Origin: a virus
IMG/VR virus record: IMGVR_UViG_3300042398_001156
Span: 11,917 to 75,916 of that record
Strand: one strand, 5' to 3'
DNA length: 64,000 bases
A program made the position numbers and the translations under genes. The first letter of the stretch is position 1. The number at the start of each line of letters is the position of its first letter. The notes under the pieces are model-generated. The model saw only the letters and a list, made by a program, of their open reading frames with translations. It was not told the origin of the DNA and did not search any database. Positions 4,765 to 60,536 of the stretch are shown piece after piece.

Positions 4765-4786
4765 TTCAAAAGGTCCTCACATTTTG

Positions 4787-4825: not shown

Positions 4826-4847
4826 AAAAACACACCCGAAGGTGTGT
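4826..4847 (-). terminator. Intrinsic terminator after scaffold gene
   Basis: Minus strand ACACACC-TTCG-GGTGTGT followed by a T run. Confidence 0.75.
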
Positions 4848-4855
4848 CTTTAGTT

Positions 4856-5785: not shown

Positions 5786-5787
5786 AA

Positions 5788-5946: not shown

Positions 5947-5947
5947 T

Positions 5948-7496: not shown

Positions 7497-7497
7497 A

Positions 7498-7731: not shown

Positions 7732-7744
7732 ATTTATTTACCTC

Positions 7745-18770: not shown

Positions 18771-18950
18771 TTACATTGTCAAGTAAAATATTAAACTTGC
18801 GAGTCCACCCACTGCTGCAGAAACTCCTAACACATAAAGCAGTCCTATAATAAATGGCAACCATCCAAACATGATCAGTTCATATACTGGTGTACGTTGG
18901 ACAAACAACATAAAGAATAAGGCGACACTAAATGCGACAATGAATACCAT
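18771..18950 (-). CDS. Small two-TM membrane protein (59 aa), not in ORF track
   Basis: MVFIVAFSVALFFMLFVQRTPVYELIMFGWLPFIIGLLYVLGVSAAVGGLASLIFYLTM; TAATG coupling to the upstream gene; SD AAGGAG. Confidence 0.65.
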   Translation of the reverse strand: MVFIVAFSVALFFMLFVQRTPVYELIMFGWLPFIIGLLYVLGVSAAVGGLASLIFYLTM

Positions 18951-25765: not shown

Positions 25766-25777
25766 AAAGGAATAGTC

Positions 25778-26032
25778 ATGGACTTTGAATTATTTTATCC
25801 CATCACTCAAGAAGAATACGAAAGTATTCAACGCGACCAATGTAACGGTGTTATTAAATACACAATTAAAAAGCCATTAGAACGATCAGATCTTAAAGAT
25901 CTAAATAAAATCATGGCTGTCTGTGGTGTCAACGATACCTATAGACACATTGGATACATAGACTTATGGGATGTATGGCAATCCGAAGACAAGTTATACT
26001 TAAGACACAGAGTCCTTGACTCAACCGATTAA
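25778..26032 (+). CDS. Hypothetical protein (84 aa)
   Basis: SD GAAAGGA. Confidence 0.6.
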   Translation: MDFELFYPITQEEYESIQRDQCNGVIKYTIKKPLERSDLKDLNKIMAVCGVNDTYRHIGYIDLWDVWQSEDKLYLRHRVLDSTD

Positions 26033-34958: not shown

Positions 34959-35069
34959 CTAACTAAACTTTTTATTGGGGTAGTCGGGTAAGACAATCTA
35001 TAAACCTTATGGGCTAAAGATTGTAACGTGGGTTCAACTCCCACCTACTCCACCAAAAAGTTTAGTTAG
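34959..35069. repeat. Perfect 15-bp inverted repeat flanking the tmRNA-like RNA
   Basis: CTAACTAAACTTTTT (34959-34973) ... AAAAAGTTTAGTTAG (35055-35069). Confidence 0.85.
34977..35055 (+). ncRNA. 79-nt tmRNA-like tRNA domain (Ala identity) lacking the mRNA-like domain
   Basis: Acceptor GGGGTAG/CTACTCC-A-CCA with G3:U70; stemless D-loop; ACAATCT/AGATTGT helix; AAC linker; T-arm GTGGG-TTCAACT-CCCAC. Confidence 0.75.
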
Positions 35070-35135
35070 GTTAACTTGTTTTGTACCAACAAGTTAATAC
35101 ATCCACCCCCTCTTTCTAAATGGTACTAAATAATA

Positions 35136-35172
35136 CCAAGCATATAAGCTGATTACTTATATGCTGGTTTAT
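35136..35172. terminator. Hairpin at the convergence of the two arms (probable bidirectional terminator)
   Basis: AGCATATAAG-ctgatta-CTTATATGCT with AT-rich flanks, adjacent to the giant-gene stop. Confidence 0.65.
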
Positions 35173-38100
35173 TTATTTTAATATCATAGCTTGTGATTGC
35201 CTGTATCGTACGTACTGTCTCCATTGAATGTTCTTAACTAAACGATATGGGTTAGTAGTAGGTCTACGCATACGTCCAAACTTATTAAACCAATCTCTGT
35301 ATATGTTTTCATATTTAGCCCAACGGCCATTACGTCCGTAACGATATCTACGCGGTGTATACTTTTCATAATTTTGAACAGTATAAACTAAAGGTATTGT
35401 AGTTACAGGAGTATAAGGTTGTCTAGAAACAAATGGTTTAAGTTTAGATTGTTGTAAATTTTCTCTCATAGGTAATGCATTAAGTACTCTAGTTATTGGT
35501 CCTGCAATAGCAAGCTGTCTAATGCTTTGCATAACATCTCTTGTTTCTAAAAATTTAGCAATACCTTTTAATAAAGGCCTTTGTCTTCCCACTAAAGCTG
35601 CACTAGGATCACTTAAAATATTTTGAACATCATATAAACCTAATCCAATACGCAACCCAAAATTTTTACTAACACGTATCCAACCACTTTGCATTTCTAA
35701 TAATTCAAATTCACTATACTGTCCTTCTTCATCTGCGTATTGACCATAAACACCATCGATAACGTCGCTTAATAAAACAACAATACGTGGGTCCGTAATA
35801 CGATCAATCCAGTTCTTAATAGAACGAACAGGGAATGATAAGTATGGAATGTCAGCAAGTAATTGCATTTCTAAAGGACTACGTAAGCCATAATTAAAGA
35901 AACGTTTAAGAGAATTATTAACAGATTCTTGGAAATTGTAACCACGTAACTGTCTATCAAGTAAGTAACCTGCAATACGACCTACGTTTTCTGTATCAGT
36001 ATTTAAGTCTTCATAAAAAAACTTATAACCAGCTTTTGTAATTCTTAATAATTTACCAAACAAAGTTTTATTAGAAGTACCAGTACGCTGTTCTTCTATC
36101 TCGTTATACACTTCTTTAAATGATCGTGTAGAAAAATCATTAGCATCTAAAGCTACGCGTTGACTTACAAGATCTCTTAAGTAAGCAAAACTTTCTTGAC
36201 GATACGTATCAATCTGTGCATTCGTTTGCATAAAGGCACTGATTTCAAATAAGATATTTTTTAAGTCATTATAATCAGCATTATAAATAGGGTTACCATC
36301 TACATCTTTATACTTAGTATATTTTTTCAAACGTTTTTCAATACGTGCCCTATAAATATTACCTTTATCTTCTCCAAATTTTAAGTTGTCATATAAAGTA
36401 AAGTATTCTGCAAAGCGTATATCTAATAAAAAGTTAACAGAATCACGTATGCTTGTACGATTTAATATAGCTAACACACCATCTTTATTTTTTAATTGGT
36501 AAGTAGTATCATTTGATACTTTACTTAAATCTTCAATAGACTTAACACCAACAACGTCTTCTAATAAAAATTTTAATACACTGTCTAAATCTTTTTGGTA
36601 TACTAAAGCATTATTTTCTAAACGATATTTAATTCTATTTTTTAACTCATCTTGTTTTAATGATTGAGCACCTTCAACGTAACCATTAATTCTATATCTA
36701 ATATTTAAAAAGTTTTGTATAACATCTAATACTTGTTCTTTAGTTATTGCAGTTTTATTTAATAGTAATTTATTTAATTTATCATATGATGATTTTACTT
36801 CTAATAAAGTAAGAATACGTTCTTCAGATATATCTTGATACATATTATACACATCAAAAGTTAAACCCATAATACGTATAATTTCTTTATTGTTTTTTAA
36901 TGTGCCATATATATCAAAGTCTTTATAAATTTCACTGTATAACTGTAACCAAGTATCTAACATGTTACGCATAATAAAACCATAATTAAAACGCATTAAT
37001 AACTTTTCAAGATATTGTAACTGTCCTAACCAAGTTGATAATGGACCTGTAAATTTAAATGGTTTATAAGCAGTTTCATAAGAAGACATTAAGTTATCAA
37101 TAGTAACAAGACCTATGTTAAGTACTTCACCTTGCGCTAGTTTATCTTCAAGCAATTTTAAAAGTCCTTTTAATTCTTTCCAATTTTTAATGTTTATTTC
37201 TTTTAATGTAGGTGATATATCAGATCCTAAATCAATACCATTTAAATCAACGGATGTATATTCTTTACCTTTAAATATAATTTTATTAATAGGTGTTTCA
37301 AAAGTATAAGACTTTTTAATAGGAGCATTTAATTCTTTAACATAATCAATAATTTCTTGGAAAGATTTAAATTTAATATCTTTAGAATGTTTACGTCTTC
37401 CCAAAAACTTATCCCATCTTGATTTATTTTCCCAAGTAGGATCATCTTTAACAAATAAATCACCAACTTTTTTAGCGAGTCCTTCAGTATTATAAGCATC
37501 TTTTTGTACAACTAAACGAATAAAGTCTCTATTAGATACTAAGTATTCATAGAATTCTTTTACATCATATACACGTTTAGTTGTTTTATTACCATTGCCA
37601 TCTAGTAAAACAATATCTTTTTTAAAAATAGAAGCAGCGCTAATTAAAGGATAGATAAGTTTATCCATATTCATTATGTTAGTATTTTTAAAACGATTGA
37701 TATCAGTACTAGTTAATGTAGGTGTGTCACCAAAATATCTTGGAACACCATCTTTAATCATTTCAATTGTTTCACCTTCAGGTGTGTGTAATAAAAAGAT
37801 ACCGCTTGTAAAATTACGAGCAAATGATTTGCTTAATGCACCCATTTGAATTTCTCGTTTCTTTTCTAATAATTCTTTTAAACGATTCTTAAAATACTTT
37901 AACGAATCTTTTAAATCTAATTTTTCTATTTGCTCAATAGATAAAATAATATCTTCTTGTTCTTTTTTTGATGTAACAAGTTTACCCGCAAGTTGTTTTA
38001 ATTTGCTTTGGTTAATATACAATTCATCGTTGTTTTCTTTTAAAGATATTTGCGCTGTGCGTATTTCTCTTACTAAATTTTCAATTTTATAAAATGCTAA

Positions 38101-41100
38101 TTCGTTACTAACGAGTCTACTTATTTGGTCGTTAACACTTTCTTTAGAACGGTTGTTATAAGATTTTTCCTTTTCATTTTTTAATGATTTAAATTCTTTA
38201 AATGAATCTGTTATTTGTTCTATTAATTCTTCAATAGTAATAGGATCTTTTAGTACATCTAAATTTTCATCTTTTAAAAACTGACTAACAGATTCAGTTT
38301 CTAAATCAGAAGCTTTCGAAATACTTGCAAGTGCTTCATTGTAATCATTCCCATAAGGATTACTTAATTTACTTGCAATAATATGTAAGTTATCTTTTGT
38401 TGCACGTGTGCTTGTACTATTCTTAACTGTATTAATACGTTGAGATGTTTGCCCTTCTTCTCCAATTGTAACGTACTCTACATCAACTTCTTTAGATCCT
38501 AAAAAGAAATCTTTAGCGTGTTGATATTTAGATGGTAATAACTCTCTTATGTATATACGTTGTTTATAACCCAAAGATTCTATAATAGTTTTATAAAGAA
38601 AATAACTGTCAGCTAATAAACGAATTTCTTTCATATCTAATTTAGCATTACTATCTGAAGTAACTGCATATCTTGCTTCTATTTCTTTAAAGGTTCCGTA
38701 AGCCATATTAAAGATACGGAATAAACGGAAGCCAACAATACGTAAAGAAACTAATCTTCCTAAAAAATTATTAACTGAATCTTGTTGGCCATTAATTGTA
38801 ATAGTTTTATCTAAAGCTTTTTCTAAATCTTTTTCTTGATTAAATATTTTTGAAACTTCAACAATTATATTTAAGTACTGATTATAAACTGAGTCTGGTA
38901 CGTAAATGTCACCGAACATTTCTTTTTTAGAGTATTCATTTATTAATAAATTTGCGGCGTTTAATGCGCTTGCTTCTGATCTATAGCTACCTTGTAATTG
39001 TGTACTTTTAATTTCAATACGTTTTTCTTTTAAAGCTTTTAACTCTTTATCTTCTATTAATAATTCTTCCATTTCAAAAGTATCTTTATCCATACCAATA
39101 GCAATTGCATTATCGTGGTCATCATCAACACCAAGTGTAATGTCTCTTATACCTACTTTGTTAGCACTTGCTAATACACGGTTTTTAAACGCACGTAAAT
39201 ATTCACTTACAAGCATACGAATAGGTCCATGTTTAGCAATACCAATAATGTTATTAGCTTCTATAGATTGAGTACCTATAGTACCACGATCAACAATAGA
39301 TTGATTTAAATAATTAGAGGCGTGTCTTTGTATTACGTTTTCTAATTTTTCTTTAGTTTTCTTTTTAGCTTTAGGATTTATAGCTTTTTTAAATTCACGA
39401 ATAGCATCTTCGTTTCTTGAAAAATAAAATACATATAAGTATTGTTCATCTACTTCGTCAAATTTATCTACAACAATACCGTTCTTTTGATAGCCTTTAT
39501 ACTTTTTAATAAACTCTAAATAGTGTGGGTTTAATGAAGTTGCATTTTTATAGAACGTATCAAAGTGTCTTACTACAGCATCAACTTTATTAGGACCACT
39601 CATTACTTCCGCAAATGAAGTTAATTCTTTAACAACTAAAGCAGCAGCATATAATTTTTTATATAAGAAAACAAGTACATCTTCTGCATCTTGTTTAAAA
39701 TAATCTTTATGTTTAACTGCATCTACTGCATCTATATAAATTTTTGTTTCTGGGTTATACGCAACTTCTTTAAACCAACCGTTGTAAACTTGATCAGTAA
39801 AATTAGGTAACATTTGTTTAGCAAAATTATTAGCGTCTTTGTTAATTTTTTCTTTAAGATCTTCAAAACTTAATCCTGCTTCTTGATCTTTTAAAGCAGT
39901 TGAATATATTGTGTTTCTAAATGTACCCAATACTTTTTCAAATGTTAACGTTAATGAATCTACAGAAACAATATTTCTTAAAGGATCTTTAAAACTATTC
40001 CAAACATTACCTGTTTGATCTCTATTAATATTTGGGAATATGCTTAACGTAGATTTAGAAGTTTGAATTTTTCTTACACCACCGAATATAAGAATACCGA
40101 CTTTAGATCCTTGGAAACGTGTAACCGTTTCATTACGTCCAACACTGTATAATTTTCTAAAGAATACTTTTTTTATTATTTCAGCGTTAGCTTTTTCTTT
40201 TCGGTTTCTAATAATTTCATCTACGCCCGTTTTAATAATATATTCTTTATCTTTAACTGATAAATGTTTTTCTAAAACTTCACCATTAACAACATTAAAA
40301 TCTTTACGGCTAACATATTGTGTTAAATCATATTTTTTAGCATCAATAATTTTTTGGAATAAATAAGAACGTGCAGCAATATTGAAATATCTTTTATCTT
40401 CTAATGCTTTTTTAACTGCAGCTGGATCTTTGTAGTCTTTTAATTCAAAGTCAGGCGCTGTGTTTAAGTTAAAAAGTTTTCTTATTGCAACGTTTAAAAA
40501 TTCTTTTTGTTCAGTTTCAGTCCAGTCTAAAGTTTCTGGTATAACAAGATTGTTAATATCTTTTTGAATACCTTCGTATAAAGAACCATATAATTCTGAC
40601 CATTTATATGTTGTTCGTATTTTTTCAAAAACGGATTTACCTACAGAAGTATATTCATAACCAATGTTTTGAATACGTTTATTGGTTTTAACATCAGGTA
40701 TTAATTCTTTACGTATTTTTTCTAAGTAGCCTTCTACATATCTTCTTTCTTTTTTAATTGGGTCCCAAGTAAAGTACCCTTCATCGTAATAAGATTCTTT
40801 AGTGGCATCATCTCGATCAAAACGTCCATCAATAAATTGTTGTTGGCTTAAAGCAATCATACCAATAGTATCACCATCGTTATCAGCACCCATCATTTTG
40901 TACATATATGGGTTAGCTTCAATAGCTGCGTGGTCGTGGTAACCTATAATTTTTAAAGTAGGTGTAGAGTTAGCATCTTGGATAGGCCACCGTGCTGTTA
41001 GTACCCAACCAAATTTACGCCCTAACTTATTCTTATAAAAGCTAATAGTATTGTTTTTATTAACAGTGTATAAAATATTTTCAACACCGTTAATACTGTC

Positions 41101-44100
41101 ATTAGTCATGCCTTGTTTATGTAAATGAATAATAAATGCTTCTAGTTCTTCTTTGTTTTTTAAACTTATTTCGTAATTTAATCCTGTATCTTTGACATTA
41201 ATACCACTAAAATTTTGTTTCTTTGCAGTGTAATTAAAAGCGTTAATAAGTTTTAACCAGGTGGTTTCGTCAAGTTTTTCTAGTTGTAACCAGTCTTTCT
41301 TTTTACTTAAAGTTTCCCAAGAGTCTCTAGAAGTTCGTAAATTACCTAAACTTAAATCAATGTTGGCAAGTAATTGTTGTCTAACACCAGGGTGTTTACG
41401 ATATAAATATGTATAGATAGCACCTGAGTCAGATGTTAAAAATTCTTGAGCACGATTCCGTGAAGCTAAATTAATTTCTTTTAATTTAATATCAAACCAT
41501 GATTTATCTTTTGCGTTGCTTTCAAGACGCATGTTAAAGAACATCATGTACTCTTGTGCGTTATCAATTAAAGGTGTTTCTGATCTTGCTTTAATATTAT
41601 CTACGGTTTTTTTAATATCGTAATTGCCATTACTTAATTTAATAGCATAAGCTTCAAGGAACTTTTCAATGCCATAGCTTTGAATTTCTGAGTAAATACT
41701 TATTTCTTTTCTAAAGTCTTGATCTAATAAAACTTTAAAGTCTACACCTTTCATACCTAAAATTGCAACAAAAGAAGGCGTTACAGGTACACCGCCTTCA
41801 ACGTTACCTTTTATATCACGATTAAATATTGCTAACTCAGGGTTACTGTTAAGCCTTGCGTTTACAGACATCTTTTCTGCGGTGTGATCAGCATCAGCAA
41901 TCACATAGATTTCACCGCGTTGTATGTCTAAACCTTTAAAGTTATCAATTACAACATCACCTTTGTCTGTAACACGTTCTATAGTAATGTCTTCTGTAAT
42001 AACATCATAAGTAAGATCACTAAATATTTTTACTTTATTGACAGAGTCTTCGCCAAATAAATCTAATAGAATATTATAATAATCTTCACCAGAATCAAGG
42101 ATAATTTTTCCTTCTTTAATAACAAATAAATCTTTTAATTCTTTGTCTTTAGACGCAAGTATACGTAAGGCACGTTCAGTTAAACCATATTTTTTAATAA
42201 ACGCTTTATTTAAAATAGCAGATGTTTTATTAGGATTATCTAATAATTCTTTACCACGTTTTTGTAACTCAGAATTAACTAAATATTTTCTAATACTATT
42301 CATCGTTTGTTCTAGTACAGCACCCCCAGCACCACGTTGTTGTACCGAAGATTTATTAGCAATAATACTAACACCAAACTTTTCACGTATCCCATCTTCA
42401 AAACGAATAGCACCTTTAAATCCCCACATGCCTAACCAAATTTTCCAGCCTTCATTAGCACCTAAAATTTTAGCTACTTTTCTATCTATAATAAGTGCGT
42501 CTTCATAAGCCGCAGGCATATCCATAAAGCCTATTTCTAAATTCATACCTATCTTGTGAAATATGTTTCGTTTATAAAATTCAAATTGTTTTTCTGTCAA
42601 TTGATTAGGAGTAAACGTATTAATAAGTGTGCCATTTTCTGCTCTTCGTTCTAATAAATCAGTTAATAAATCACCCGTAGCAGGGTTATCTTTAATAGCT
42701 TGTTCAAAATATAATTCTAAAAGCTCTTCAAATTTTACAGATCTATTTAACTTGTCTTCAAAACTGTAGATGTTATTAATTAAACCATACGGTGTATACT
42801 CTAAATATTGTTTATTGTAAGGTAAAATAATACGAGCAGGATTTGTGTTAAGTGTATGTGGCATATCTACGTTAGTAGGTAAATATATAGGTACAGATTT
42901 ACCGGAACTTCCTTCTGCAGATTTTTCTAAATCAAGCAAGACTCCAATCTTGCTGGCACCCTCACTGGTCCAATCTATAACCATGTTTGCACTATAAGTA
43001 GAAGGTACTAATAACAAGTATTTACTTGGGTCATTGCTTACAAATCTAGAAAGTGTACGATCTGCTAATCCTTGGTAAATTGTTTTAGTGTTATTTATTT
43101 TTTCTTTTTTACGTGCATAGTTATGAACATCTAAAAATCTAAAGAATCTATTTTTTAGTACTTGAGTCATGTTAATAACTTCTAAAACAGTATCAGGTAT
43201 AGCATCATCAAAGACTTCGTCTTTTAAAAACTTTTCTGTAAGAACCTTACCACCTCTAACACCTTCATCATTTAATTCAAATAAGCCAAGCTTTCTGTAT
43301 TTTTCATAATGTGATAACACACGTTTAATACTTTCAAAGCTGTGGTCTACACCATCTTCTAAATACACAATATTTTGTGGTAGTTTAGTATGACCAAGTT
43401 TTACTTGACCCTTAGCATCTTTGTAATTAAAGAAACGTTTTAACCAATCGTTAATATCTTCATCTTCTTTAGGTCCTTGTAGTTTAATTGTTTTAACTTC
43501 TAATGTTTTACCAGCTTCAATATAAGTGTAATTAAATTCAAAGGATACTTTACCACCTTTTAAACTAAACTTATAACTATTAACAACGCCATTAAAATTA
43601 TCAAATAAATTAACGATAAAAAAGTTTTCTGTAGGTCTTCTTATTAAAGCAACATCTTCTTTAATAACCAGTGCTTTACGATCTACACCTTCATGTACAT
43701 CTTTATACACACGGGTTACGTTAGGAATGTTTAATTGTTGAATAAACTCTAACCCTTCTTTTTGATTAGCTAAATTTTCTAATGAATCTAAACGTTCTTC
43801 TTTTGCTAGGTTTTCAATGTTTACTTTACCGCCATTTAAAATAGTATAAATGTGATCAAATTCCATTTCTTTTTTAATTGCATCAAGTTTCTTAACTCTG
43901 CTTAAAACTTCTACAAACTTATTAGTAACTGCTTCTGTGTTAACTTCTAAATCAGTTTGTTTTCTGTCAAATTTTAAACGGTTTAATAAATCAATATTGT
44001 TATTAACGTAATCTAATTCATCTTTAATAGCTAATGCAACAAGTGTACGCATGTTTAAAGTATCTATTTTTCCAACAAGATTATCTTTTTCTTTTAATAA

Positions 44101-47100
44101 ACTAAGTAATTTTGTCACACCTTTATTTTTACTAAACAATTCTACTAAGTTAGCAAATCGTTTGTCTTGAATAATATTTGTGTTTTCTTTTAATTTTAAT
44201 ATATTAAAAAATTTATTTAAGATATTAATTAAATCAGCATCATCAATTTTTAAATCAGGAATTTTTTTAAAGTCAGCACCTAGTACTTCAGGTCCAATGT
44301 TATTCCAAGTCTCTACTAATTCTTGAAGCTTAACAATTGCTAAAGCTTTAAACTCTTCAGTCTTTTGATTTATTATATCTTCTATTTTTTTATCAAACGT
44401 AGAACTTGCTGCAACTTTACCGTTGTTTAAAAGAGTAATCATAGTAGTAAGTTCTTGACTACGTTTATTATAAGCGTCTAATATTTTATTTTTTTCTGCA
44501 GCATCCTTGATGCTTATAATAGTAGAATCAATAAATGTAGCTAAAAGTTTTTTAACTTCAGTAGATTCAATATCTATTTTTCCATTAGGACTTTCTTCAA
44601 TTATGCTCATTAACTTTTCTAAAGCTTGCACACTGTTGTTTAATTCTAATTGTAAGTTATCTAATTCTATTTTTAATAGACTATAGTTTGTTATATTCGT
44701 AGAACTATAACCATATTTATCTTCATTAAGTTTTTCTTTTAGAACTTTATTAATTCTATACGTTGTATTTTTTGTAATCTCTTGTAACTTTTTAGAGGTT
44801 TTTCTAAGAATTTCAAAAAGAGTTTCTTTTTTAACAACACCATCTTCTACTTTCTTTGTTAAATCTTCAATTGTTTTTTCTACTTCTTTATATTCTTTTA
44901 ATGTTTTTGCTTGGTCAGTAGCTAACTCTGTTAGTTTTTCTTTATGAGACTTTCTACCAGAAGTTTCAATAAAAGCAATAAATCTAAGTACTTGTTGTAC
45001 TTGTAAATCAATTGAAGTATTTGCTTCGTTATAATTAAAGTCTGTTACTTGATCATCAGCGATGTTTAATTCTTCTTTAACAGCATCTGTAATTAACTGT
45101 CTTACGCTTGTTAATTTAGGATCACCAGCAATACTATCTACACCTTGTTGTATCTGTGCAGTAAATTCTTCTTCCATTATTTTTAATAACTCATCTGTGT
45201 AAGCTAAAATTTTAGCATCTTCTCGTATGTTATGTCTTAACATCCAACCTTCATTAAAATATTTAAATATAGCATTTCTAATATCTAAACGTTTAATAGG
45301 ATCTTTTTCATTAATGTAGTCAAGTACTAAACTTTTTATAGTATTATATTGTGATTTTTCTCCTGTAAATAAACTTACTTTACGACCTTGATTTGTTACT
45401 ATACTTAAACGACTTTCAACATTTTTAATAACATCTTGTATTAAAATGTTTTCTATTTCACGATCAAACTTACCTATAGCTGTTAAGTCAGCTTTGTTTA
45501 AAGGTATACCTTTTTTTAATTTTTGATTAATTCTAGTTATTTCTTTTTTATTAGCAGCAATTAAACGTGCAGCATCTCCACGTGTAACAGCGTCGTTAAC
45601 ACTAGCGTACTCCATGCGTTCTCTTATAGCTTTAGGATCGTTATCTCTTATTAATTGGTAATATAAGTTTACTTTTAAAGTACTAGCAAGACGTTGAATA
45701 AATTGATTGTAGTTAGGAAAGTCAAAATCTTCACCGTTATGTGCAATAATAGGTACATTTTTAGGCGCTGCGTTTACTTCGTTTATAAAAAGACGGGTAA
45801 CTTCTATGTCATTACGCTGACCTATTACATACTTAATAGTAGTATCTATACGTTTATCTAATTCATCTTTTATTGTTTTATTTAAAAGATTATAGTACTC
45901 ATCTTGATCTGTATTTCTCCAAACTTTTTTAGTTTTAGTTGGGTCAGCATTAACCCAAGCTTTAAAGCCTTCCATTTCTTTTACATACATACGTCTTTGT
46001 TGTTCATAAAACCGTGTTAATTCAGGAGACAATTTAGTTTCTACTTTACCGTTTACAAGTTCTTCTGTTTTACCTTCAATAAATATTTGATTTGTCATAA
46101 ATTGATTTAACACATCAAAAGATAATTTACCTTTAACGTTTTTAAATTTTAATATAGTTAATTGATATGGAATTTTATTACCGTTACTATCTGTTACAGT
46201 TTCCATGTCTAAAATAATAAACTCTTCAGGTAAGTTTTGACCTGCTTTTTTCATCTGGGCCATATAATTAAAAGCAGTAATAACACCATCTGTTATACCA
46301 TTATGTAGCCCTATATTTTTTTCACCGTCAGTATTAGTATCTTTAATTAGTTGTACTAATTTATCATAACCACCTATGTAATATTGACCGGCATCTTTAA
46401 TAATTTTTTCAATAACCTCAACACTAGTCTGTTCAACATTAATTTTATTTAAGTTTCTATACGTATCTAAATTACTATTACCATAAGGCTTTTCTTCTTT
46501 TCTAGCACTTATAAGGTTATCATAACGATTCTGTATACCCTTCTTATCGCTTTCAGCTTTTTCTAATAACTCATTTAATTTAGCAATACGTGCAGGTACT
46601 TCTGTAGAGTAATCTTTTAATGCTTCTTTTTCTTTTTTTAAAGCAACAATTTTATCTGTTAGTTCTTTTCTTTGCGCAATTAAATCATCGTGTTCTTTTT
46701 TATATAAAGTAGTATCATTTGATAATATGTAAGACGCAAGATACTCATCTGATATTTCTTTATTTGTTTCAGCACTTACTTTTTTTGCAACACGTTTTAA
46801 CACAGTAGTAGGATCTTGATTACCTTCTGTTTTTAAAACATTAATGACATTATTACTATTTTTAATATTAACTTTATTTTTTGTTATACGACTTTTTAAT
46901 TCTATTAACGCTTTTATAGTCTGTTCTAAATCATAATTCTTTTGATTAGTAATTAAATTATTTATAGTTATTTCAAATTCACCTTTAAGTTCTTTTAATT
47001 GGTCTTTACTATATTTATCTTTAGTAGTTTCTACAACAGTAGATTTATTAATTGCGTCTTCTACTTTTTTAAGTTCATCTAATATATATTCTTTTTGTTT

Positions 47101-50100
47101 AAATGAATTAATATCCATGTTGTCAAAAGGATATGATTTTAATTCTAATAATCTTTCTAATACTAATAAAACTTCTCTTGGTATTTCTATAGTTGTAACG
47201 TTACTTCCTGTACCAACAACTTCAAAACCTTCTTGTATAGAAGGTTGAGCTACGCCTCTGTTTGCTTTTTTTCTTTTTTCTAATTCTTTTTCGTCCGATT
47301 TAAAATCAGATTGTTTTACAAAATAAAGTTTTTCTGAGCTAACATAAGTTATTGGTATTTGTAAAGATGTTGACCAGCTACCAGTTGGTTCATCTCCACC
47401 ACGTACATATAATCTTTCTGTACTACTATTAACTATGTTTTTTATTTTTGTTATAAACGTATTTAATTGATTTCTTACATAAGGATTTTCAATTAAAAAT
47501 TTAAGTATATCATCGTTTAATAAATTTCTTTTTTTCCAATCAATCTTACTGTATTCTTCTTCTTCTTTATTTAATGCTTCTCTAAACTTATCAAATAGTG
47601 GATGACTTTTTCCAAAGGCATCAAACTCTGCTTGGGTTTTGTCAGTGTTTGGTATTTCACGGCCACTATCTACCCAGTCTTTTTTTATTTGTTGATAAAA
47701 ACTTTCTCTTAAATCTGAAGCTTCTTCTAATTTTTCAAACATTAAAACAATTTCTTTTTCGTAAGAAGTTATTTTACTTTCTATTTCTTTTAAACCTTCT
47801 TCTTTTCCAAGTTTTTCTTTAACTTGTAAAACATTTAAGCTACTTTTTATTTTAAAAGAACTTAAATAATTGCTGTCTTCTTTATTAATAGTAGCAATTA
47901 ATTGTTTAGTTAGCGTTAATAATCCTTGAAGTGTAAATTTCTTTAAGTAAATAAGTTTGTTTAATTCTGTTTTGTAACGTTCTTTTGTTATATCTTTTTT
48001 ATTAATTCCTAACTTATGTAAATCATAATTAATTTTAAGTTGCGCGTATGTTGCCCACAAAAATTTACGATATGAAAGCTCATTAGCTCTATCATGTTTT
48101 TTAAATGTAAATGTTTCTTTTTTATTTTTAACATCTTGTATAGCTTTATCAATAACAGTTTCATAATTATCAAAATCTTCCAGTCCAAAAGTATTAAAGT
48201 ATTCATCTTGTGCTTGTGCTAAATAATTTTCTGCTTTATTTAAGTATTCACTTTGTGATTTTAAAAGAATATCCGTACTTTTTTTATCTAGTGTAAGTGA
48301 ATCTTTTAAATCTTTTTGTTCTTTTGCAGCAATTTCTTTAGCAGCACCTTTAAAACTTCCATAGTAAGCTCTTTGAATTTTATTAACATGATATCTAGCG
48401 ATAGCTAACTGTCTTCCTTTACGACTTAAACCATCTTCTGTATCACTAATAATTTTATCACCGTCTGTAAAATATTTATTAATGTTATCAATTCTATTTT
48501 CATTATTTTTAATAATGGATTCATAACCTTTTCTATAAGTACCCCAGGTCTTTTTTGAAACTTTAGAATCTTTTGGATCAACTCCATTAATTAAAGTTTT
48601 TTGAAGTGTATTAATTGTATTAATTTTATCTTCTGCATTTTTAATAAAGTTATTATAATCTTCGACTGTTTGTATATTAATACCTAATTCAATTAATGAT
48701 TTAACATTATTTTCAAAAGTATCTTTTTTATATGTATTTCTAATTTTTGCAAATGCTTTATATTCTTTTGTAGATAACCACGTTTTTGCTTCAATTAAAT
48801 CATCTCTTATTTTATCGTACAGTTCAAAAAACTTAACAGACTTTTTATTTTTAAATTTGTTTATTTTATCTTGGTTTTCTTTTTGAGCCTTTGTTAATAA
48901 TTTTTCATTGAACTCTTCGTATTCTTTAATAAGCGAAGGTGTATTTTCATACACAGCAATTAAAATTTTTTCTTTTCTGTCTTTTGCTTCTTTATCAATA
49001 GTAGTTATTTCATTATTTAAAATAACTTGAGATGATTCTAAAATGTTTATTTGTGTTAATAATTCTAATTCTTTTTTATTTATAGCAGCAAGATCTGTAT
49101 TACTAAAATTAAACATAGATTTTAAACTATCTAATCTATTTGTTAATGTTACAGCTTCTTCTTTTAATTTATTGACAGTATTAGTAATTAATTCCCAGCT
49201 TACAATTGTAGGTAATTTTTTAAAATCATAATCTTTATCTCCAGCTACACCTTCTTCTATAGTATCCCATAACAGTCTTTCCCCTTTATCAAGATTTAAT
49301 TGACTGCTTAAAATTTTTGTAAGGTCATTAATATTTTGAATACGTTTAGTTACTTCACTTCTTTCCTTAGGAGTCATTGCTTCTAAAACAGCTTTAGGAA
49401 AAATAATATTAATAGCTTTTCTAATTGATCCTGCTGTTTCAATTTGATTAGCAAGGCTAGTTAACTTTGAAATATTATAACGTTGCTGTGCGTCTGATAT
49501 AGTTTTTATTTGATCTTCAAGATAACGCAATCTAGTTTGTGCTTGTGCTTTTGTTTTATTGTCAAACTTATTGATAAGAATATAACCCATAACTGCTTGT
49601 ACAAACTCTGGGGTTACATCAAGTAAATGACGACGAGAATTAAAATAATTAACTATGTCTTCTACTTGTTGGTTTATACGTTTTAATTGTTCTGGATCAT
49701 TTATAGAATCAACATATTTTTTAAAATCATTTTTATAAATAGTAATAAATTCTTTACGTTGAGATATATTATTAATAGCAATAGCTATTTCTAAAAAACG
49801 AACAAAGTTAATATCTTCTACTTCTGGTTTAATTAACTTTAATAGATTTGTATATCGTTGCATTAATGCCGTGTAATCAATATTTCTAGAAGGAACTTCA
49901 TCAATATTTTTAGCGTACTGTTCACTTGTGTAATGAAAACTAATATCTCCTAAAGCTTGTTCAATTATTTTAGCAACAGTTGCATTATAGTTTGGATTTG
50001 AATTAGGTATAAATATAACTTTAAAAGTATCACGCATTTGTTGTAATATAATTTTGCTAATATTATTAGGTGTAGTTAAAATATATTTACGTTCAGGTGT

Positions 50101-53100
50101 AACATTTGTATCAGGCACATCTTCATTTTTTAAAACAATAGTATCTAATCTATTGTTTATATCTTCTACATATGTACCTGCGTTAATTAAATAACTGACA
50201 GAATTATAAATATCTCTTAAGATACTATTTTCAAATACATCTTTTTTTGGATTTGTTTCAAACGTTCCCGTAGCTTCTAAAGCTTTAACACGTTTAATGT
50301 TTTTACGTATTTCTTTATCTCTAAATCTATCAACAGCGTCACTCCAAGACCATTTAGCGCCTTCAAATTTTTGATTAATATAAATAGATTTAATCATATT
50401 TAATAATGAAACAAAGACAAAAGCATTATCATTAGAACTAAATTTATTTATTAGTACTATCATTAAGTCATCAACAGTTTTGTACACTTCAAATAATCTT
50501 ACAATTTCTTCATAGTCAGTAAATCCTATTTCAGCAAAAAATTGTCTAATTTTATTAACGCGTGTTATTTCATCGTGTTCAATTTCTTTACCATAAGCAT
50601 GTGTGTATCCTAATATAAATTTTTTAAAATATGACATAAAATCTTTACTATCATTTAGTAAAGGTATTTTCATTAAACTATATAACTCGTAAGGACTTTC
50701 AAATTTATCTTCTGATTTTTTACTTCTAAAGCTAGCCATTACTTTATAAACATTATCATCAATAGGAAGATTTAAATCACCTGTAATAGTTCTAAATTTC
50801 TCAACTTCTATATTATAACTTTTTAGGTACTCTTCAAAAATTTCAACGGTAGTAACTTGATTTTTTCTTTCACGATAAAAAATTAAATTAATAAACATTT
50901 CAGTTATATTACGTATTTGTGGGTCTTGAATATTATCTAAGTATTCATTAACGCTTGCATATTTTACTTGAGGTATAGTGGTGTTTTGGTCTATTACAGC
51001 TACTTTATTAGTAGCACCAAACATCGTATCTTCTAATTTATCTATGATACTTTCGATTGTTTTATTAATATCTAAATTATTAAAAGATAATCCTGGAACA
51101 AGTGCAATTAACTGCACTATAATTTCAGACATACTTGTAACTATTTTTCCGCCTTCTGCGTTAGGGTCGTCTAATGTGTATGTTCTAAATTCTTCTTTAG
51201 GTTTTTTATACCAAGCTGCCACATCTTCTTTATTTTTTTTAATTAAATCAGCTAGTATTGAATTGATAGTATCTTTAGTATTGGGGTCTGCTGCTAAAGC
51301 TTTTTCATACAACATAAAAGCTTCACCACCTAAACGAACAGTAGGGGTTTTTCTTGCGTTTGTACTAATCTTTGTTAAGTAAGTACTTATAGTTTGCTTC
51401 AATAACATTTCTTGTAAACGTAATACTTCATCCTTATTTATACTATCTAAGTTATTATTAAGTTTTAAATCAATAAACATCTTTCCAAAGTTATATAACT
51501 TTTCATAAGAAGAAGATATATTTTGAAATTCATCTTCAGGCAAAGCTTTAATACCCGCTACAAATTGTTCTAAAGTAATGCCTGGTTGACCTAGATACGT
51601 GGCAAATGATCCGGCTACGGATATTAATAGTCTTTTAATATCTAAAAAGTCTTCATCTTTTAATGTATTAAAAACTGTATCTTGATCAATATTAAAAAAC
51701 GATAAAGCGTTTATTAAATCTTCGTTTTTAAAATCTCCGTATTCAAAAATATTTTTATTATTCTTAATAACATAAAGTAAGTTAGACCAGTTTAAATTAA
51801 TAGAAGTGCCTTTAATTCTTGCGTTACTTTCTTTAACTTTTTCTTTATAAAATTTACGTGTTTTTCTAACGCTTCTAGCTATTTGTGTTTCTAAAGTAAC
51901 ACCATCGGTTTGTTTAAGATTAAACATTTCTTTTAATCTTTGTATACCATAAAGTCTTTCTTCTACACGGTTAACAGTATTAAACATTGTTAGATTTTCA
52001 TTATACTTATTATTATCATTAATAAAGTTTGTATTAGCTTCTCTTAAAATTTTTATTCTAGCCGATATTTCTTGTGCTGTAATAAAAAATTCTAAACCAC
52101 TAGTAAAATATTGTTCAAGTTTACCAATAATTTTTTTATAAAAACTTTCTTGTATATATTTTAACTTTGTAATAAAAGAATAAGTAGTATCTTTTAATTG
52201 CTCTAGTGTGTTTAAAAAAACTTTATTGTATATGTCGTTATAGTTATCAAAGTCGATGTCAGAGTCTTTGTATTCTTTTTGCATAACGCTTAAAGCTTCT
52301 TTAACTTTTTCAAGTAATGTAACATCGCCAATTTTAATGGTCGTTAAATAGTTGTATGTATTTGGATCTGATTTACTTACATCTCTTTCAAGGTTATCTA
52401 GATCGTACCCATCTTTTATATATTGATTAACAAAAAATATTTTACCAACAACATCAAGGTTATAACCTTTGTATCCTAATAGTTCGTTAAATCGTCTAAA
52501 CGCTAATTCTTTTTTAGCAAGTCTAAACAATTTTTTAAAGTCATTTGTTTTAGTATAATCTAAAGCAATCGTATTACCAGGTTCCACAATTGCATATTGT
52601 TTAAATAACACAGCATACTTTTGTAAACGTTCAACAACATAATCATAGTGTTCTTGTGTAGTTTTAAAAGGTGTACCTGCTGTATCTTGTTGAGCTCTTA
52701 AACGTTCTACATTTTCTAAATCATTAATAAAGCCGTTTAAGATTCCACCTTTATTACTTTTAACGTTTAATATATTTGTTTCAACTTTACCTTTAATTTT
52801 GCCGGTAGTAGGATCTTTAATTACAATATAATCAAAATAATTAACGTATTTAAATGTATTAGACATTTCTAAAATATCAGTAAACTGTTGTGGAGTTACA
52901 ATAAAAACTTCTCGCGCTCTATTGTTTTTTGTTTTAACACTATTTTCTAATATGTATTTTAAAGAGGAATCTATTTCAAAATTATTACGATTTATTATTA
53001 ATACATATTTATCATTAGAACTATACACATCAAAATTTGAGGAGTCTATATTACTTTCCGATAATTTAGTTTTTAATTTTGAATTTAATTCTAATGTTAA

Positions 53101-56100
53101 AGACTGGTCATTCTTTTTAATAATCTCTTCACCAATAAGACTATTGTAACTTGGTAAACCTTTTACATTATTTTCATTTACATTGCTTGTTCCATCTAAA
53201 GCATAGTGTTCAACAACAAAATAGGTAGTCTTATTATTTTCTATTGATTTTGCAATGACATAAGGATATTCGTCTGTACCCTTTGTATTAAAAAACACAC
53301 GTTCTAACTCTTCAGGATTGTTTAATAAATAATTAAAAAGTTCATTTGGTTCTTCTACTTTTTTATTTTCAATATTTTTACTTACATCTTCATAAAATTT
53401 AATGCGTGCTTGTATATCAATTAATTCAAACTCTAAAGTTTTAATTTGTTCTTCAATAGCGGGAGTCATATCTTTATAACCTTTTAAAATATTTATACGG
53501 CGTATGTTAGATGTTTCTGTATTTTGTAAATTTTCAATGTTTATTTGTTTAGCAAATCCTTTTGTAGTAGTTGCTTGATAAAATGCTATTTTTTCTACAA
53601 ATAATTTTTTAATGTCTTCTGGAATTTTTTTATTTAAAGGATCAATTACACTAAGAATAAACACAGCTTCAATTGTAGAAGGTTTTTGTATTTTAGTACC
53701 ATTAAAGTCCATTGTTAAAATAGGATCTTTTAAAATATTTTTAGCGTTAACCCAAGCATCATGAATACTAGAACGTAAATAAATACTAATGTTACTTGTT
53801 CTATCTTTGTTTACAACTGTTTCTAATATTTCTTTAGTGTTAAGTCCGTCGTATAAAATTTTAAAACCTACATTGTTAAGAAGATCATACTCTGCGTCAG
53901 TTCCTTTAAAACTTTCTCTAGATACATCAATAGTATCATAAATAATATTACGTCCATATTGACGTGCTAAAGCATAATACTCAGTAAGTAATTTACTTCC
54001 TACTTGTGCAGATTTAGCAGGTGTCATGTTTGTAGAATTTTTACGTAGCGTATCAATAATTGCGTATATAGTTTTAATATTAACGTGACGTTTTAACACG
54101 TAATTAAGTAAATATGTTTTTTCTGGCACAGCTTTAGGGTCAGATTTTTTAATATAAATAGCAATACGTCCATCTTTTTCTTCTTCAAAGTATGCTAACT
54201 CTCTTAAATCAACAGATTTTTTATTGTAACGATCAACTTCAATAGAAGCGTTTAACAACCAAACTGTTTTCATTAACCCTGTAGTTAATTTATTTAATAC
54301 AGTATCATCTTTATCTGGGTCTACAAGTACTTGCATATTTCCTAATGTAACAATGTCATTTAAAATATCAAAATGCTTTTGGTCTGCAATTGTTAAAGCT
54401 TTATACACATCCGTGCTTAATGTATAACGACGTTCTGTAAGATTATTTTTATCTTTAATTTCAACTGCACGAATACCATCATTAACAAGATCACGTAAAT
54501 AACGATGTTTATTGTTAAATGGATTACGCCCTTGAAACATTCTAATAAATTTAAATAAAGCATCTCTACTTATTTTTTCATAAATTTCTTCTTTTATAGA
54601 AGGGTCTTTATTTATAATACGATTTACAAAATCATCATATTCTTCTTTAGAGTACAGTGGATTTAACTTACCTAAGTAATCTGAAACAGCTTCACTAACA
54701 GCTACAAAGTACATACGATTAATACGTCTATCTTCACCTTTTTGTAAACCTATTTTAATTGTAATAGGCTCGTCTGCACTATATATAGATGTAATTAAAC
54801 GTACTTTGTAACTTGTACTATCATAAGTTTCTCCACGTTTAGAATAAAGTTTAACTTTTTTGCCGACCGTACTATTACGTAGTGCATCAAAATCAATTTT
54901 AATATCGTTTTTATTTGCAAGCCTTACAAGTTCTTCTGCAAGTTTAGTTAAATAGTACAGATGTCCTTCAGAACGTCTGCCATATTTTTTAAGAAATTCG
55001 TTATAACTCTTAAAAACAACTTCTTCTACAGTACTTGATTCATTAAAGTTTTGATCTGTACTTTCTGCAAACTTGGACATGACAAGTTTAAAAGTAATAT
55101 CTTCTATAAAGATTGCCGACTTACCAGAAAGAATATTTATTAAAGCAGTATATGGATCTTGTTTACCTTCAATTTCTTTAATTGTTATGTCAAATAATAA
55201 ATTACTTAAAACTTCTAAAGGCATACTTTCACTCAGCCTTGCTACTGTTTTTTCTTTTTCAAGATCTTTTTTTACATCAGTTTTTATTTCTTCTTTACGA
55301 TCTTGTTCTTCAAAACGTTCTTGTTTTTTTTCTTCTAATTTTTGTACACGAGCTACTACTTGTTCTCTAAATGTACCTTCTTCATTTTCATCTTGTTCAG
55401 AAAGTATTAACGCAGCTTGTGCTTTGTATCCTTCACGATTTTCTAAAAACTCAATAAACAAACTATTAATAGTATTTAAACGATCTGCAGCTTCTACAAT
55501 GTTTAAACGTTCATCTTTGTTTAATTTTTCAGGAAGTAAATTACGCGTCGCATCTAAATTTAAAAATAAATTTACATCTTGCACTACTGGGTTTAATGAA
55601 AAATAATAAGCTTTTATAAAAGCAAACATTTTATCATACTGTAATTGTTGATTAACTTCTTTTAAAGTTTTAAGAATAATTTCTTTAATGATTTGTTTTT
55701 CTATTTTAGTTTTGTCTGTATCGTTTTCACGTATAGTTGTTAGTTTTTTAATATCATCGTTTAATTGTACAAATCGTTTGTTTAATAAATCTAATCGATA
55801 TGCAAAAGTACCTTCTTTACGTTCTAATAATTTAGAAAATACAACTTCTCTTAATAACGTTAAATTACTTTCTTCTAAACTTACTGGTGTTTCTTTTGAA
55901 CCTTTAGCAATAATGTTGTCAATTAATGCAATGACTTCAAAAATACCACCGTATTGTTTAATTGTATCTACATTAATTAAATCACTAAAACCTGCTTTAT
56001 TGATAACATTCATAAGCATTTCATATTTTTCTTCAACGTCTGTTTTCTTAGACCACACTATAGCAAAGTCTTTAAGATCAGTAGTAGCTAAACCTCGTAA

Positions 56101-59100
56101 CAATACATCTATATCTGTTCCTGGTTTTAATAAACCAAATATAAAACTAAACACACCTTGTTCAACAGTACGTGTGTATGTTAATGAAACATCTACTAAC
56201 TTAAATTTAGCTTGATTTGGTTTAATTAGTTTTAAACTAGCTACAGTTTGTTGGTTACCTTGTTCATCTTCATATGTAGCAGCTACTTTAATTCCGTATA
56301 AGTTAGCAATTTTAACAAGTTCATCCATGCTGCCGTTTTCAACAAAGTCTTCTACAAATTTAGCACGGCTAAAAGTATTACGTTGAACGTCTTTATCTGG
56401 TACTTTACCTGTTTTAACATCATTCAAAGATTCTTTAAGAACTTCTATACGTTTACCAAGAGGCTCTAATGCTTCTTGTATTTTAGATTTTTCTTGTTCA
56501 AGGTCAATAATTTTACGTTGAGCAGCAAGAGCTTCTTCATTTATTTTTTTAACACCTTCAACAGATTCAGTTATTTTATATTCGTTACGATCAACAGTCA
56601 TAATTGTTGATTCATATTTAGACACATCAAGTAACTCAGATGGTGAAAGTTTTTTAATTGGATTAATATAAGTATCAAAACCTTCAAAACCAGAACCATC
56701 TAAAAGTTCATAGTCTATTTTTACATACTCAACTAAACCTGAAATAGGATCATTTTCGCTACCACGTTTAGTTTCTTTTTTTGTAATACGACCTACAACA
56801 AAACCCTTACCTTCAACCGTTACTAAAATAAAATCGCCAACTTTTACTTTAGTTGCTTTTTTATAAACTGGTTTTGTACCTGCTGACGCTGTTAATTTTT
56901 TTGTTGCTATAGCATTTTTTGCGCCTGTATTAGCAGCCTTTGCTGAATTTACAACAACTTTTAATTTCTCAACTTCTTTTGTTTTTTCGTCTAAACTTTT
57001 ATTTAAACGTTCAACATCTTTTTCAATGTCATCTAACTCTTGTGTAATTAAAGCACTAGTTTTTACTAACTCTGTAGTATTACTATACATACGTAAACTA
57101 CTTACAACTTTTAATAAGTTAGCTAAAGTCTTTTCTATATCTAATGTTAATTCGTTTTTAACAACAAGAATTACTTTTATAGCATTCATTACATTTGCAG
57201 TAACTTTATAATACTCAGTAACATGGTCGTAATTTAATAAAGCATTCTTTTTTGCACGATACATTAAAACGTTTCTGTCTTTTTGTTTAACACCTTGTTT
57301 TACAAAGTCATCTAAATTATCTTTATGATCAGCTTCAAACTTAGCTACTTCATCTCTAATAGTTTTCGCATTAGATTTAGATATTCTTATTTTAATACCA
57401 GCGCCTGTTTCATAATTTATAACTTGTTCATCAATATATTCTTGATCAGCTTCAAGTTGTTTTGTATTAGAATCTAACATTGCTTGTAAACGATCAGTAT
57501 TTTCTTTGTTTGCTTCTAACTCTTCTTTAACAGTAGACGCATCTAACTCTGTTTTTACAGCAGCGTCTACTAAAATTTTCATTTGTTCGTTTTCTTTTTT
57601 AGTCCGGTTTAAAACAGATTCAAATGTATCATTACTTTTTTGAAGATCAGTTTTGTTTTTTAAATCTTCTAATAATTGTTTAGTAACTTTGTCTAAAGAT
57701 TCTTTAACATCTTTAACGTTTTCAACTGTGACTGCGCTTTGTTTAGCATCAATATTATTTGTTAAAAAATTTTTAAAAGAAATAATGCTACTAACTAATC
57801 CTTTAGCTGCAATAGACATTGGGTTAGATAAATGTGTTATAAACCCTGCTAAAACATCAACATTATCAATATGGTTTTTTAAAGATTCAAACTGTGTATA
57901 TAATTTAGCAGCAAGAGTTGGCGTAATTTTAATATCTAATTCTTTATAAGCTTCAAATAATAAAGTCGGTTCATCTTTATTTGCACCGTATGTTTTTTTA
58001 AGTTCTCTAAAAGTATTATCAAATCGTTCGATTAATTTTTTTTCATCAGCAGTCAAAACATTTTTTGTTTTTAAGGTTTGATATTGTGTGTAGTTATCTT
58101 GAATTTCTTTTTTAAATTCAGAAGATCCTACCATGTAATTATAATTAGGATTTGTAAAAACATTATTTAATAAATTATTAACTGCTACAATTTGTGGGTC
58201 TAAATCTGTCATAAGAACTTTTGCTTTTTCGTTAAGTTGTACGCCAGCGCTAACATACTGATTAGTTAAAAAAGTTTTTACACCTTTTGCACCATTAGTC
58301 ATCCAAGCTTTAACTAATCTTTTAGCTAGTACTTGTTTAACATTTCTGTCTAATCTATAACTAAAAATACCTAAACTATCAACTGCTTTTGGTAGCCCAT
58401 CAATTTTAGCAACTCCTCCACCAGCCATTTTTATTTTGTTACCTTCGTGTTCCATAACACGTGCAATAACAGAAGCACCAATTTCGCTTGTGTATTCTTC
58501 GTAATACTTATTAATTACTTCTCTAGCATTTTGAGGGTCTATTAAAAGCTCTCCTAATGTAGAAATAGCAGAGTTACCAAGCTCACCTAAGTTTATTCCA
58601 GCAGCTTCTCTGATGTCATCAAACATAACAGAACTGTATAATTCATCACTTGTTCCCCAAGATTTTGCAAGAGCATCAATCATAGCCTTTGAATCACCTT
58701 TAACTAAACCTAGTAAGATAGATTTGTTTCTAGTAGCTCCGTATAAGTTATCGTTAATATCTCCATACACAGAAATAGCAGAAACAAAACTTACTTGATC
58801 TGGGTCTGCAGGTTTCCAAGGACTGTATTTTTCATCTAAAGGAGCAGTAAATGCACTTATACCTTGTAATGTCATCATAGATAAACCAGCTCTTACTTGA
58901 TTACCTATAGCACTTGTTCCTAACCAATTAGCTGTTTGTCTTAATAAATTTTTTTCTCCTAATAAATATTTAGGTTTTAATTTTGTACCTACGTTAATTC
59001 CACTACCAACAAGATTAATTAAAGCAGGCACAGCTATAGTAGATACAATGGTTGCAATACTACTTAGTGGACGTTGCGCCATCCCTGAGTACAAGTTTTG

Positions 59101-60486: not shown

Positions 60487-60496
60487 GCTGTAGAAT

Positions 60497-60507
60497 ATTA
60501 TAACATA
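60497..60507 (-). promoter_or_regulatory. Extended -10 promoter (TATGtTATAAT) 10 nt upstream of the giant-gene ATG
   Basis: Perfect TRTG-n-TATAAT; no SD between promoter and ATG. Confidence 0.65.
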
Positions 60508-60536
60508 AAAAAACCACTGTAAATTATACAGTGGTT
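60507..60536 (-). terminator. Intrinsic terminator after the capsid operon
   Basis: AACCACTGTA-taatt-TACAGTGGTT + T run. Confidence 0.8.

Follow-up and report, generated by a model that had tools for sequence, protein, structure and literature searches.

RNA polymerases (RNAPs) embedded in giant virion proteins have precedents among phages (10.1101/2020.03.07.982082, 10.1101/2022.12.01.518664, PMC13434306). In phage N4, gp50 is a giant protein of the late region (~3,500 amino acids, aa) in which the polymerase is flanked by large non-catalytic regions and which is ejected together with the DNA (PMC13434306). Its catalytic domain falls into the T7-like single-subunit class (PMC3821669). The RNAPs of crAss-like phages all carry Ile or Val at the fourth position of the motif DFD[I/V]D (10.1101/2020.03.07.982082). 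Single-chain RNAPs built around two barrels are rare, examples being YonO, gp66 of crAss-like phages, gp96 and gp64 of P23-45 and the QDE-1-type enzymes. Here, we report on a stretch of viral DNA of 64,000 nucleotides, referred to as the window, which comprises bases 11917-75916 of the linear 75,916-base IMG/VR virus record IMGVR_UViG_3300042398_001156, a record estimated to be 71% complete. The window contains a giant open reading frame (ORF) on its minus strand, the product of which is 8,437 aa in length and thus among the longest phage proteins known to us. Judging from predicted structures, this protein harbours a module that is most likely a DNA-dependent RNA polymerase.

A first-pass annotation made from the sequence had placed a single-chain RNAP at window positions 40860-42520, which correspond to aa ~5990-6542 of the giant protein. 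The motif strings quoted in its support are all found once each in the protein and at the places claimed (Table 1), and the distance between R6499 and the first aspartate of the presumed active site, D6535, is indeed 36 residues. The signature DxDGD occurs a single time in the whole giant protein, in the form DNDGD. When 16 sequences sharing 25-55% identity were aligned, 34 residues proved invariant in the polymerase region. They include D5996, K6015, G6022, K6024, G6025, R6051, G6191 and D6198 in the beta-like part, and G6367, R6369, Q6371, R6499, P6501, Q6503, D6535, D6537, G6538 and D6539 further downstream, while H6201 varies. Since the putative catalytic residues are invariant across homologues that far diverged, the motifs are not a product of chance. 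We infer from their position in the predicted beta-like barrel that K6015 and K6024 are the counterparts of the two active-site lysines of the beta subunit. Neither Pfam nor PHROGs, searched with the whole giant protein, yielded a match for the RNAP region. The same was true for PDB sequences searched by phmmer (aa 5700-7000) or by hmmsearch with a profile of five sequences, for 50,697 phage records searched by tblastn and for a word-based protein search with region 5900-6700. The only Pfam match was below threshold and concerned PF21825 (crAss001_48) at aa 3771-3812 (E 0.003).

Structure prediction was performed with AlphaFold for aa 5900-6700 on the basis of a 17-row alignment (pLDDT, the predicted local distance difference test score, 74; pTM, the predicted template modelling score, 0.70) and for aa 5960-7159 (model m9dffd64dbfe1; pLDDT 77, pTM 0.77). 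The pair of double-psi beta-barrels (DPBBs) on which the first-pass annotation had staked its proposal is present in the predicted structure, the two barrels being joined by a helical connector formed by model residues 300-402. Foldseek retrieved 268 matches from the PDB at E<=1e-3 (best 3.8e-6), and the best 50 of these were nearly all largest subunits of multisubunit RNAPs. At the same threshold, 44 matches were obtained in BFVD, consisting of viral RNAP large subunits and long uncharacterised phage proteins. VIA-align, run against 48,161 representative chains, tells the two halves of the module apart: alignments with largest subunits start at around residue 312 of the second model, and the first half finds counterparts in barrel domains of Pex1/Pex6 and molybdopterin enzymes. 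Isolated DPBB domains match, the root mean square deviation being ~2 A. Sequence identity in the structural alignments to subunits of multisubunit RNAPs is 8-16%. Downstream of the second barrel, the models contain a long helix with invariant R6790, K6795, G6802, R6805 and K6806; the alignment with an archaeal A' subunit ends there, and the largest-subunit alignments pass through it to aa 7133. We read this predicted helix as the bridge helix. A single chain comprising a beta-like and a beta'-like barrel inside the giant protein, as originally claimed, is thus borne out by the models, and with ~1,170 of 8,437 residues the module accounts for so small a part of the chain that the protein is, again as claimed, several times larger than the polymerase needs. 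Based on these models, the two-barrel polymerase fold is hardly in doubt, and activity of the module as an RNA polymerase appears very likely. A single-subunit RNAP of the T7/N4 type was also considered and ruled out, as both models match two-barrel enzymes and neither a T7-like RNAP among the top matches nor a Pfam match was found.

Table 1 Position and properties of the giant gene, its predicted parts and adjacent elements. Positions refer to the window, residues to the giant protein.
Feature	Window position	Strand	Residues	Remarks
Giant ORF	35173..60486	-	1-8437	8,437 aa, 968.8 kDa; 33% of the 75.9-kb record; no internal stop
Hydrophobic Gly/Ala-rich segments	58996..59310	-	393-411 and 474-497	Kyte-Doolittle scan; N-terminal, in conserved block aa 400-700
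Insertion of ~500 aa	46687..48189	-	4100-4600	55-89% gaps in homologues
DEDD/DnaQ-like motifs (candidate)	45721..46221	-	4756-4763 and 4913-4922	Exo I-like FIILDMET; Exo II-like IIAHNGEDFD
Predicted two-barrel RNA polymerase module	39088..42609	-	5960-7133	~1,170 residues; VIA-align RNAP-subunit matches over model residues 1-1174
Predicted beta/Rpb2-like half, first double-psi beta-barrel	41713..42609	-	5960-6258	
AYEDALII			5993-6000	single occurrence
GWKIWLGMWGFKG			6013-6025	holds K6015 and K6024; single occurrence
Lys pair K6015...GFK6024G	42415..42444	-	6015-6024	invariant in 16 sequences
GEIYVIADADHTAEKMSVNAR			6191-6211	holds H6201; single occurrence
NRDIKGNVEGGVPV			6222-6235	single occurrence
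Predicted helical connector between barrels	41401..41712	-	6259-6362	
SGAIYTYLYRKHPGVRQQL			6354-6372	single occurrence
Predicted beta'/Rpb1-like double-psi beta-barrel	40774..41400	-	6363-6571	includes G6367-x-R-x-Q6371 and R6499-x-P-x-Q6503
WVLTARWP			6494-6501	holds R6499; single occurrence
MGADNDGD			6532-6539	holds D6535, D6537 and D6539; single occurrence
Predicted catalytic metal-binding motif D6535-N-D-G-D6539	40870..40884	-	6535-6539	D, D, G and D invariant in 16 sequences; in beta'-like barrel
Candidate bridge helix	40057..40194	-	6765-6810	46-residue helix
C-terminal block	35176..37089	-	7800-8437	basic and aromatic at the end
Terminator-like hairpin with T-run, then extended -10-like TGTTATAAT	60495..60536	-		TGTTATAAT 10 nt before ATG; no Shine-Dalgarno sequence
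Major capsid protein gene	60968..62956	-		directly upstream of giant gene; phrog_1357, E 1e-15

Translation of the minus strand yields the claimed 8,437-aa protein without interruption. A HMMER search of 1.84 billion representative proteins with aa 5650-6849 as the query returned 28 matching proteins. Thirteen of them are full-length giants of 7,377-7,998 aa and the rest are truncated, residing on short contigs. In full-length alignment, the frames of the giant homologues are as long as that of the query and collinear with it from end to end, and the same open frame is present in four IMG/VR relatives of 72-82 kb. Each family member whose source name was checked is either termed 'hypothetical protein' or nameless. 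The stretch itself was also detected in runs of 24 study records, all freshwater or lake-water metagenomes dated 2016 and 2023-24; the source sample may be among them, and some may stem from a single campaign. In four separately filed runs, contigs were found, three of these runs not being flagged as a possible source sample, that tile positions 35100-55099 with 0-3 substitutions each and zero indels. Contig joints with sides of only 20-25 letters were taken as chance matches from other organisms. Because indel-free contigs stem from other runs and because equally long frames occur in relatives, the giant ORF is not an assembly artefact. No RNA run is listed among the sequencing runs that carry the stretch. 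The giant gene (36001-60000) differs from the rest of the window in its lower GC content (0.26-0.31 versus 0.32-0.41) and a stronger negative GC skew; the encoded protein, which is of low complexity, abounds in K, L, I, E and N.

How does the module compare with the RNAPs introduced above? According to the first-pass annotation it is 'of the kind packaged by crAss-like phages', which did not hold as stated and is true only as an architectural analogy. This analogy is best seen with gp66 of phage phi14:2 (PDB 6VR4; Phi14:2_gp077, 2,180 aa). In both cases a single chain contains a beta-like barrel, a connector and a beta'-like barrel, the RNAP makes up a small part of a late or structural protein in a virus of the podophage type, and R-x-P-x-Q is followed ~36 residues on by G-x-D-x-D-x-D. 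However, the giant protein is about four times longer, with the RNAP at 70-85% of its length, and it lacks traits of the gp66 family: the fourth motif residue is an invariant Gly instead of Ile or Val, and profile homology is absent. When family alignment A2 was compared with gp66 aa 850-1700 by hhalign, the R-x-P-x-Q...G-x-D-x-D-x-D stretches were paired, albeit without significance (probability 0.3%, E 0.21). Going by sequence comparison, the giant-protein RNAP falls outside the gp66 family of crAss-like phages. Note that neither 6VR4 nor YonO appears in the structure-match lists, which does not exclude similarity to them.

P23-45 gp96 (PDB 8H2N/8H2M; 5,002 aa) likewise features a two-barrel RNAP with Gly in its DFDGD motif and resides in a giant virion protein with membrane-active parts. 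Its RNAP, however, is located at the N-terminus of a siphovirus tape measure, whereas that described here lies near the C-terminal quarter of a protein from a phage without a recognised tape-measure or tail-tube gene, whose portal, large terminase (TerL) and major capsid protein (MCP) are podophage-like. Neither a metallopeptidase domain as in gp96 nor any sequence similarity to gp96 was detected in the giant protein. The large subunits of multisubunit RNAPs, be they bacterial, archaeal, eukaryotic or from nucleocytoplasmic large DNA viruses (NCLDV) or jumbo phages, have in common with it a Gly-containing DxDGD, a presumably equivalent Lys pair and a long helix that follows the active-site barrel. 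They differ in that here both halves form one polypeptide and only a core of ~1,170 residues is present. Counterparts of alpha and omega and a sigma factor were not found in the window. QDE-1 scores below the subunits of multisubunit RNAPs, each half of the module being closer to the latter; moreover, QDE-1 and the cellular RNA-dependent RNA polymerases (RdRPs), as well as YonO of SPbeta, are stand-alone enzymes of ~1,000-1,400 aa and not part of a chain of ~8,000 aa. With gp50 of N4 (Schitoviridae) the giant protein would share the logic of a giant ejected protein that bears a polymerase, but the fold is T7-like there and two-barrel here, and no homology was found. The literature searched contained no description of this giant-protein family. 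While RNAPs within giant phage proteins are a known phenomenon, the present lineage is new, as are its size and architecture, and we are probably dealing with a further, previously undescribed lineage of phage-carried two-barrel RNAPs.

Conservation along the giant protein is uneven. The best-kept blocks in the full-length alignment are aa 1-100, 400-700, 4700-5000, 5800-6600 and 7800-8437. The polymerase region thus belongs to the better-conserved parts, and identity elsewhere is only 10-20%. Mean identity of the C-terminal block to homologues amounts to 0.20-0.58 per 100-residue segment, with peaks at aa 8201-8300 and 8401-8437, and the two most conserved 100-residue segments of the whole protein both lie within this block. 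It is without a family match, and one may speculate about a role in packaging or portal docking. For the hydrophobic segments near the N-terminus, we infer membrane insertion as the role. The length of 8,437 aa, compared with ~7,600 aa in relatives, is due to the insertion of ~500 aa, which is specific to this phage and missing from nearly all homologues; it is rich in K and E, and its start is devoid of proline. The helical middle of the giant protein evidently tolerates large changes in length.

These features also bear on the question of whether the chain acts in one piece. It could instead be a polyprotein that is cleaved into a membrane or channel part, an exonuclease-like part, an RNAP of ~1,200-1,500 aa and a C-terminal part, a scenario compatible with packaging and with the reading we favour. 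Stretches of poor conservation and many gaps lie between the conserved blocks, an insertion of 500 aa is tolerated at aa 4100-4600, and crAss-like phages distribute equivalent functions over several large proteins (PMC7886860), all of which would fit such processing. However, neither a protease domain nor a recognisable cleavage motif was found in the giant protein, the single frame is intact in all full-length homologues despite divergence to 25-35% identity, and descriptions of both N4 gp50 and P23-45 gp96 speak of one giant virion protein each. We therefore regard cleavage as rather unlikely, though it deserves to be kept in mind.

The favoured reading of the giant protein as a carrier that brings its polymerase into the host draws on gene order. 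The MCP gene resides directly upstream on the same strand, as does an ORF of 113 aa. The MCP of the four relatives is 64-75% identical. In relative G001 its gene was mapped to the place just ahead of the giant gene, and the MCP-centred loci of all four relatives show this order. On the opposite flank, a plus-strand replication module runs towards the giant gene, with genes for an AAA ATPase, an HExxH/vWA protein, a primase, a helicase, a family A DNA polymerase, an exonuclease and a Sak4-like protein, and beyond it lie genes for a primase-helicase, TerL, an SU10-type portal and tail proteins. Production late in infection, packaging and ejection are proposed for the giant protein because its gene comes after that of the capsid protein, with which it shares the strand, and by analogy with N4, crAss-like phages and P23-45. 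On these grounds, we lean towards a virion-delivered polymerase for early genes.

In front of the giant gene, a layout like that listed in Table 1 is found in G001 and G003, where TGCTATAAT is followed after 10-12 nt by ATG. G004 has GAGGTATAAT 2 nt before ATG, and the leader of G002 is longer and equipped with a Shine-Dalgarno (SD) sequence. This arrangement suggests a promoter of the sigma70/sigmaA type and a leaderless or near-leaderless mRNA, and it perhaps keeps expression of the giant gene low relative to that of the capsid gene. In positions 1-35200 of the window, promoter-like motifs were repeated at chance level only. The extended -10-like element opens up a different explanation, in which the RNAP is genuine but the giant protein stays out of the virion and would transcribe middle or late genes inside the infected cell, in the manner of P23-45 gp64 or the non-virion RNAPs (nvRNAPs) of jumbo phages: the promoter-like TGnTATAAT directly before the gene suggests expression by a host-type polymerase, which could occur at any time of infection. 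Yet the known non-virion two-barrel phage RNAPs are compact (592 aa for P74 gp62, 410 aa for an AR9 chain), and a size of 969 kDa, hydrophobic segments at the N-terminus, thousands of helical residues and the adjacency to the capsid gene would be hard to explain. In all precedents, RNAPs inside giant phage proteins are virion proteins. We consequently deem a purely intracellular role quite improbable.

Could the two barrels serve another chemistry? A QDE-1/RDR-type RNA-dependent RNA polymerase, a primase-like enzyme or a PolD-like DNA polymerase would be conceivable, possibly working together with exonuclease-like motifs that are present in the same chain ~1,000 aa upstream of the polymerase. 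The Exo I-like DMET and the Exo II-like HNGxxFD are kept in the family consensus, making a DEDD/DnaQ-like exonuclease domain a candidate at motif level only. The segment concerned (aa 4720-5020) gained no support from PDB sequences or the Atlas, the whole protein gave no Pfam match to it, and the only lead scored 0.84 to a cluster in which 10% of the members carry PF13482. A different activity would also be in keeping with the fact that the ribose-contacting Asn of cellular beta' is not conserved. On the other hand, the exonuclease domain is supported by no search, an RdRP is without evident use for a phage with double-stranded DNA, and the best structural matches are subunits of multisubunit RNAPs rather than QDE-1-type enzymes. 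As the phage already encodes a family A DNA polymerase and an exonuclease in addition to primases and helicases, a second DNA polymerase is not needed. An activity other than DNA-dependent RNA synthesis thus has very little in its favour. Motifs arising by chance, or an ORF created by assembly or annotation, would fit the AT-richness of the gene, the low-complexity K-, N-, I- and E-rich protein and the lack of a library family match, but may safely be dismissed given motif residues invariant in 16 diverged homologues, confident models matching RNAP subunits in both halves and near-identical, indel-free contigs from many separately filed runs.

Several further genes and elements of the window deserve mention. 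The HExxH/vWA protein of the replication module (540 aa, 26016-27638) was considered as a second RNAP and rejected, as it carries HExxH and vWA-like DxSGS motifs. Its gene and the preceding one for the AAA ATPase, which gives CobS/MoxR-like matches, together occupy 24866-27638 (+); the 540-aa protein features the zincin motif HELGHH and a C-terminal vWA-like DISGST motif without matching PHROG or Pfam families. Where the replication module and the giant gene converge, the gap between them accommodates a tRNA-like element (34977-35052, +) that reaches 31.4 bits with the Rfam tRNA model (gathering score 29); ARAGORN calls neither a tRNA nor a transfer-messenger RNA (tmRNA). In the tail region, a 445-aa protein (3427-4764, -) with a leucine-rich repeat of the BspA type (PF13306, E 2e-9) is a possible receptor-binding component. 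A 224-aa protein encoded at 18950-19624 (-) next to the primase-helicase gene matches phrog_3704 ('ferredoxin', auxiliary metabolic gene; E 1e-53).

The nearest cultured relatives with regard to MCP and TerL are the Paenibacillus larvae podophages API480 and SV21 (31% identity), and no crAss-like phage is among the matches listed for either protein. The first-pass annotation had taken the capsid for one of the N4-gp56 type; the matches of the MCP were to phrog_1357 and to the capsid proteins of these two phages. API480 and SV21 have no homologue of the giant protein. The GTDB genomes do not contain a relative either, such that neither a prophage nor a clue to the host is available from this side. 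The DNA originates from lake water. A host among the Bacillota is hinted at only by the relatedness to Paenibacillus phages and by frequent SD-like motifs.

Taken as a whole, we consider it likely that the giant protein is a multi-domain phage protein with a single-chain two-barrel RNAP that is packaged and ejected for early transcription. The beta-like barrel with its Lys pair, the connector, the beta'-like barrel with R-x-P-x-Q and DNDGD and the long basic helix would constitute a minimal two-barrel RNAP core making RNA on a DNA template. Produced late, a few copies of the giant protein would be packaged in the head, possibly with the help of the very conserved basic C-terminus, and ejected along with the phage DNA. 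Passage through the envelope may be aided by the hydrophobic segments near the N-terminus and by the K/E-rich helices with their thousands of residues. The RNAP module would then transcribe the first phage genes without a need for the host polymerase, as N4 gp50, crAss-like gp66 and P23-45 gp96 do. A number of points must be set against this picture. No sequence-based method ties the region to any RNAP and, with these methods being blind, the assignment rests on structures predicted from only 17 sequences. Downstream of the beta'-like barrel, no trigger loop could be made out, and we assume that the Lys pair lies close to the Asp triad. Cellular beta' subunits have an Asn (N458 in E. coli) two residues before the first Asp, which contacts the ribose of the nucleoside triphosphate. 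It is replaced here by G6533, a Gly as in gp66, and sugar selectivity can therefore not be read from the sequence. The extended -10-like element shows only that a polymerase of the sigma70/sigmaA type may transcribe the giant gene. Finally, no second RNA polymerase was seen in the window, but roughly a quarter of the genome is missing, a part that may hold the early genes or another polymerase.

A more far-reaching version of the favoured reading would have the single ~970-kDa chain act as a one-piece ejectosome, joining four tasks for which N4 and crAss-like phages employ several proteins. Its N-terminus would insert into the membrane, thousands of helical residues would form a conduit, and the DEDD-type exonuclease would resect the end of the entering DNA and thereby expose a single-stranded template. 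This template would then be transcribed by the two-barrel RNAP, which would help to pull the genome in and would go back to ancestors of the beta/beta' type by a path separate from the crAss/QDE-1 and P23-45 lineages. We present this only as an unlikely, tentative proposal.

Single-chain two-barrel RNAPs are central to the debate on the origin of the core of cellular RNAPs and on the escape of phages from host transcription. The giant-protein family would add to them a separate lineage that is invisible to sequence libraries and has retained the DxDGD of the cellular type. It is carried by a recurrent group of freshwater phages that are not crAss-like according to TerL and MCP searches. The family provides biochemists with a compact polymerase core (~1,200 aa) and raises the question of how a capsid packages and ejects a protein of ~1 MDa. 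Recognition of the RNAP would change the annotation of the whole group of giant proteins.

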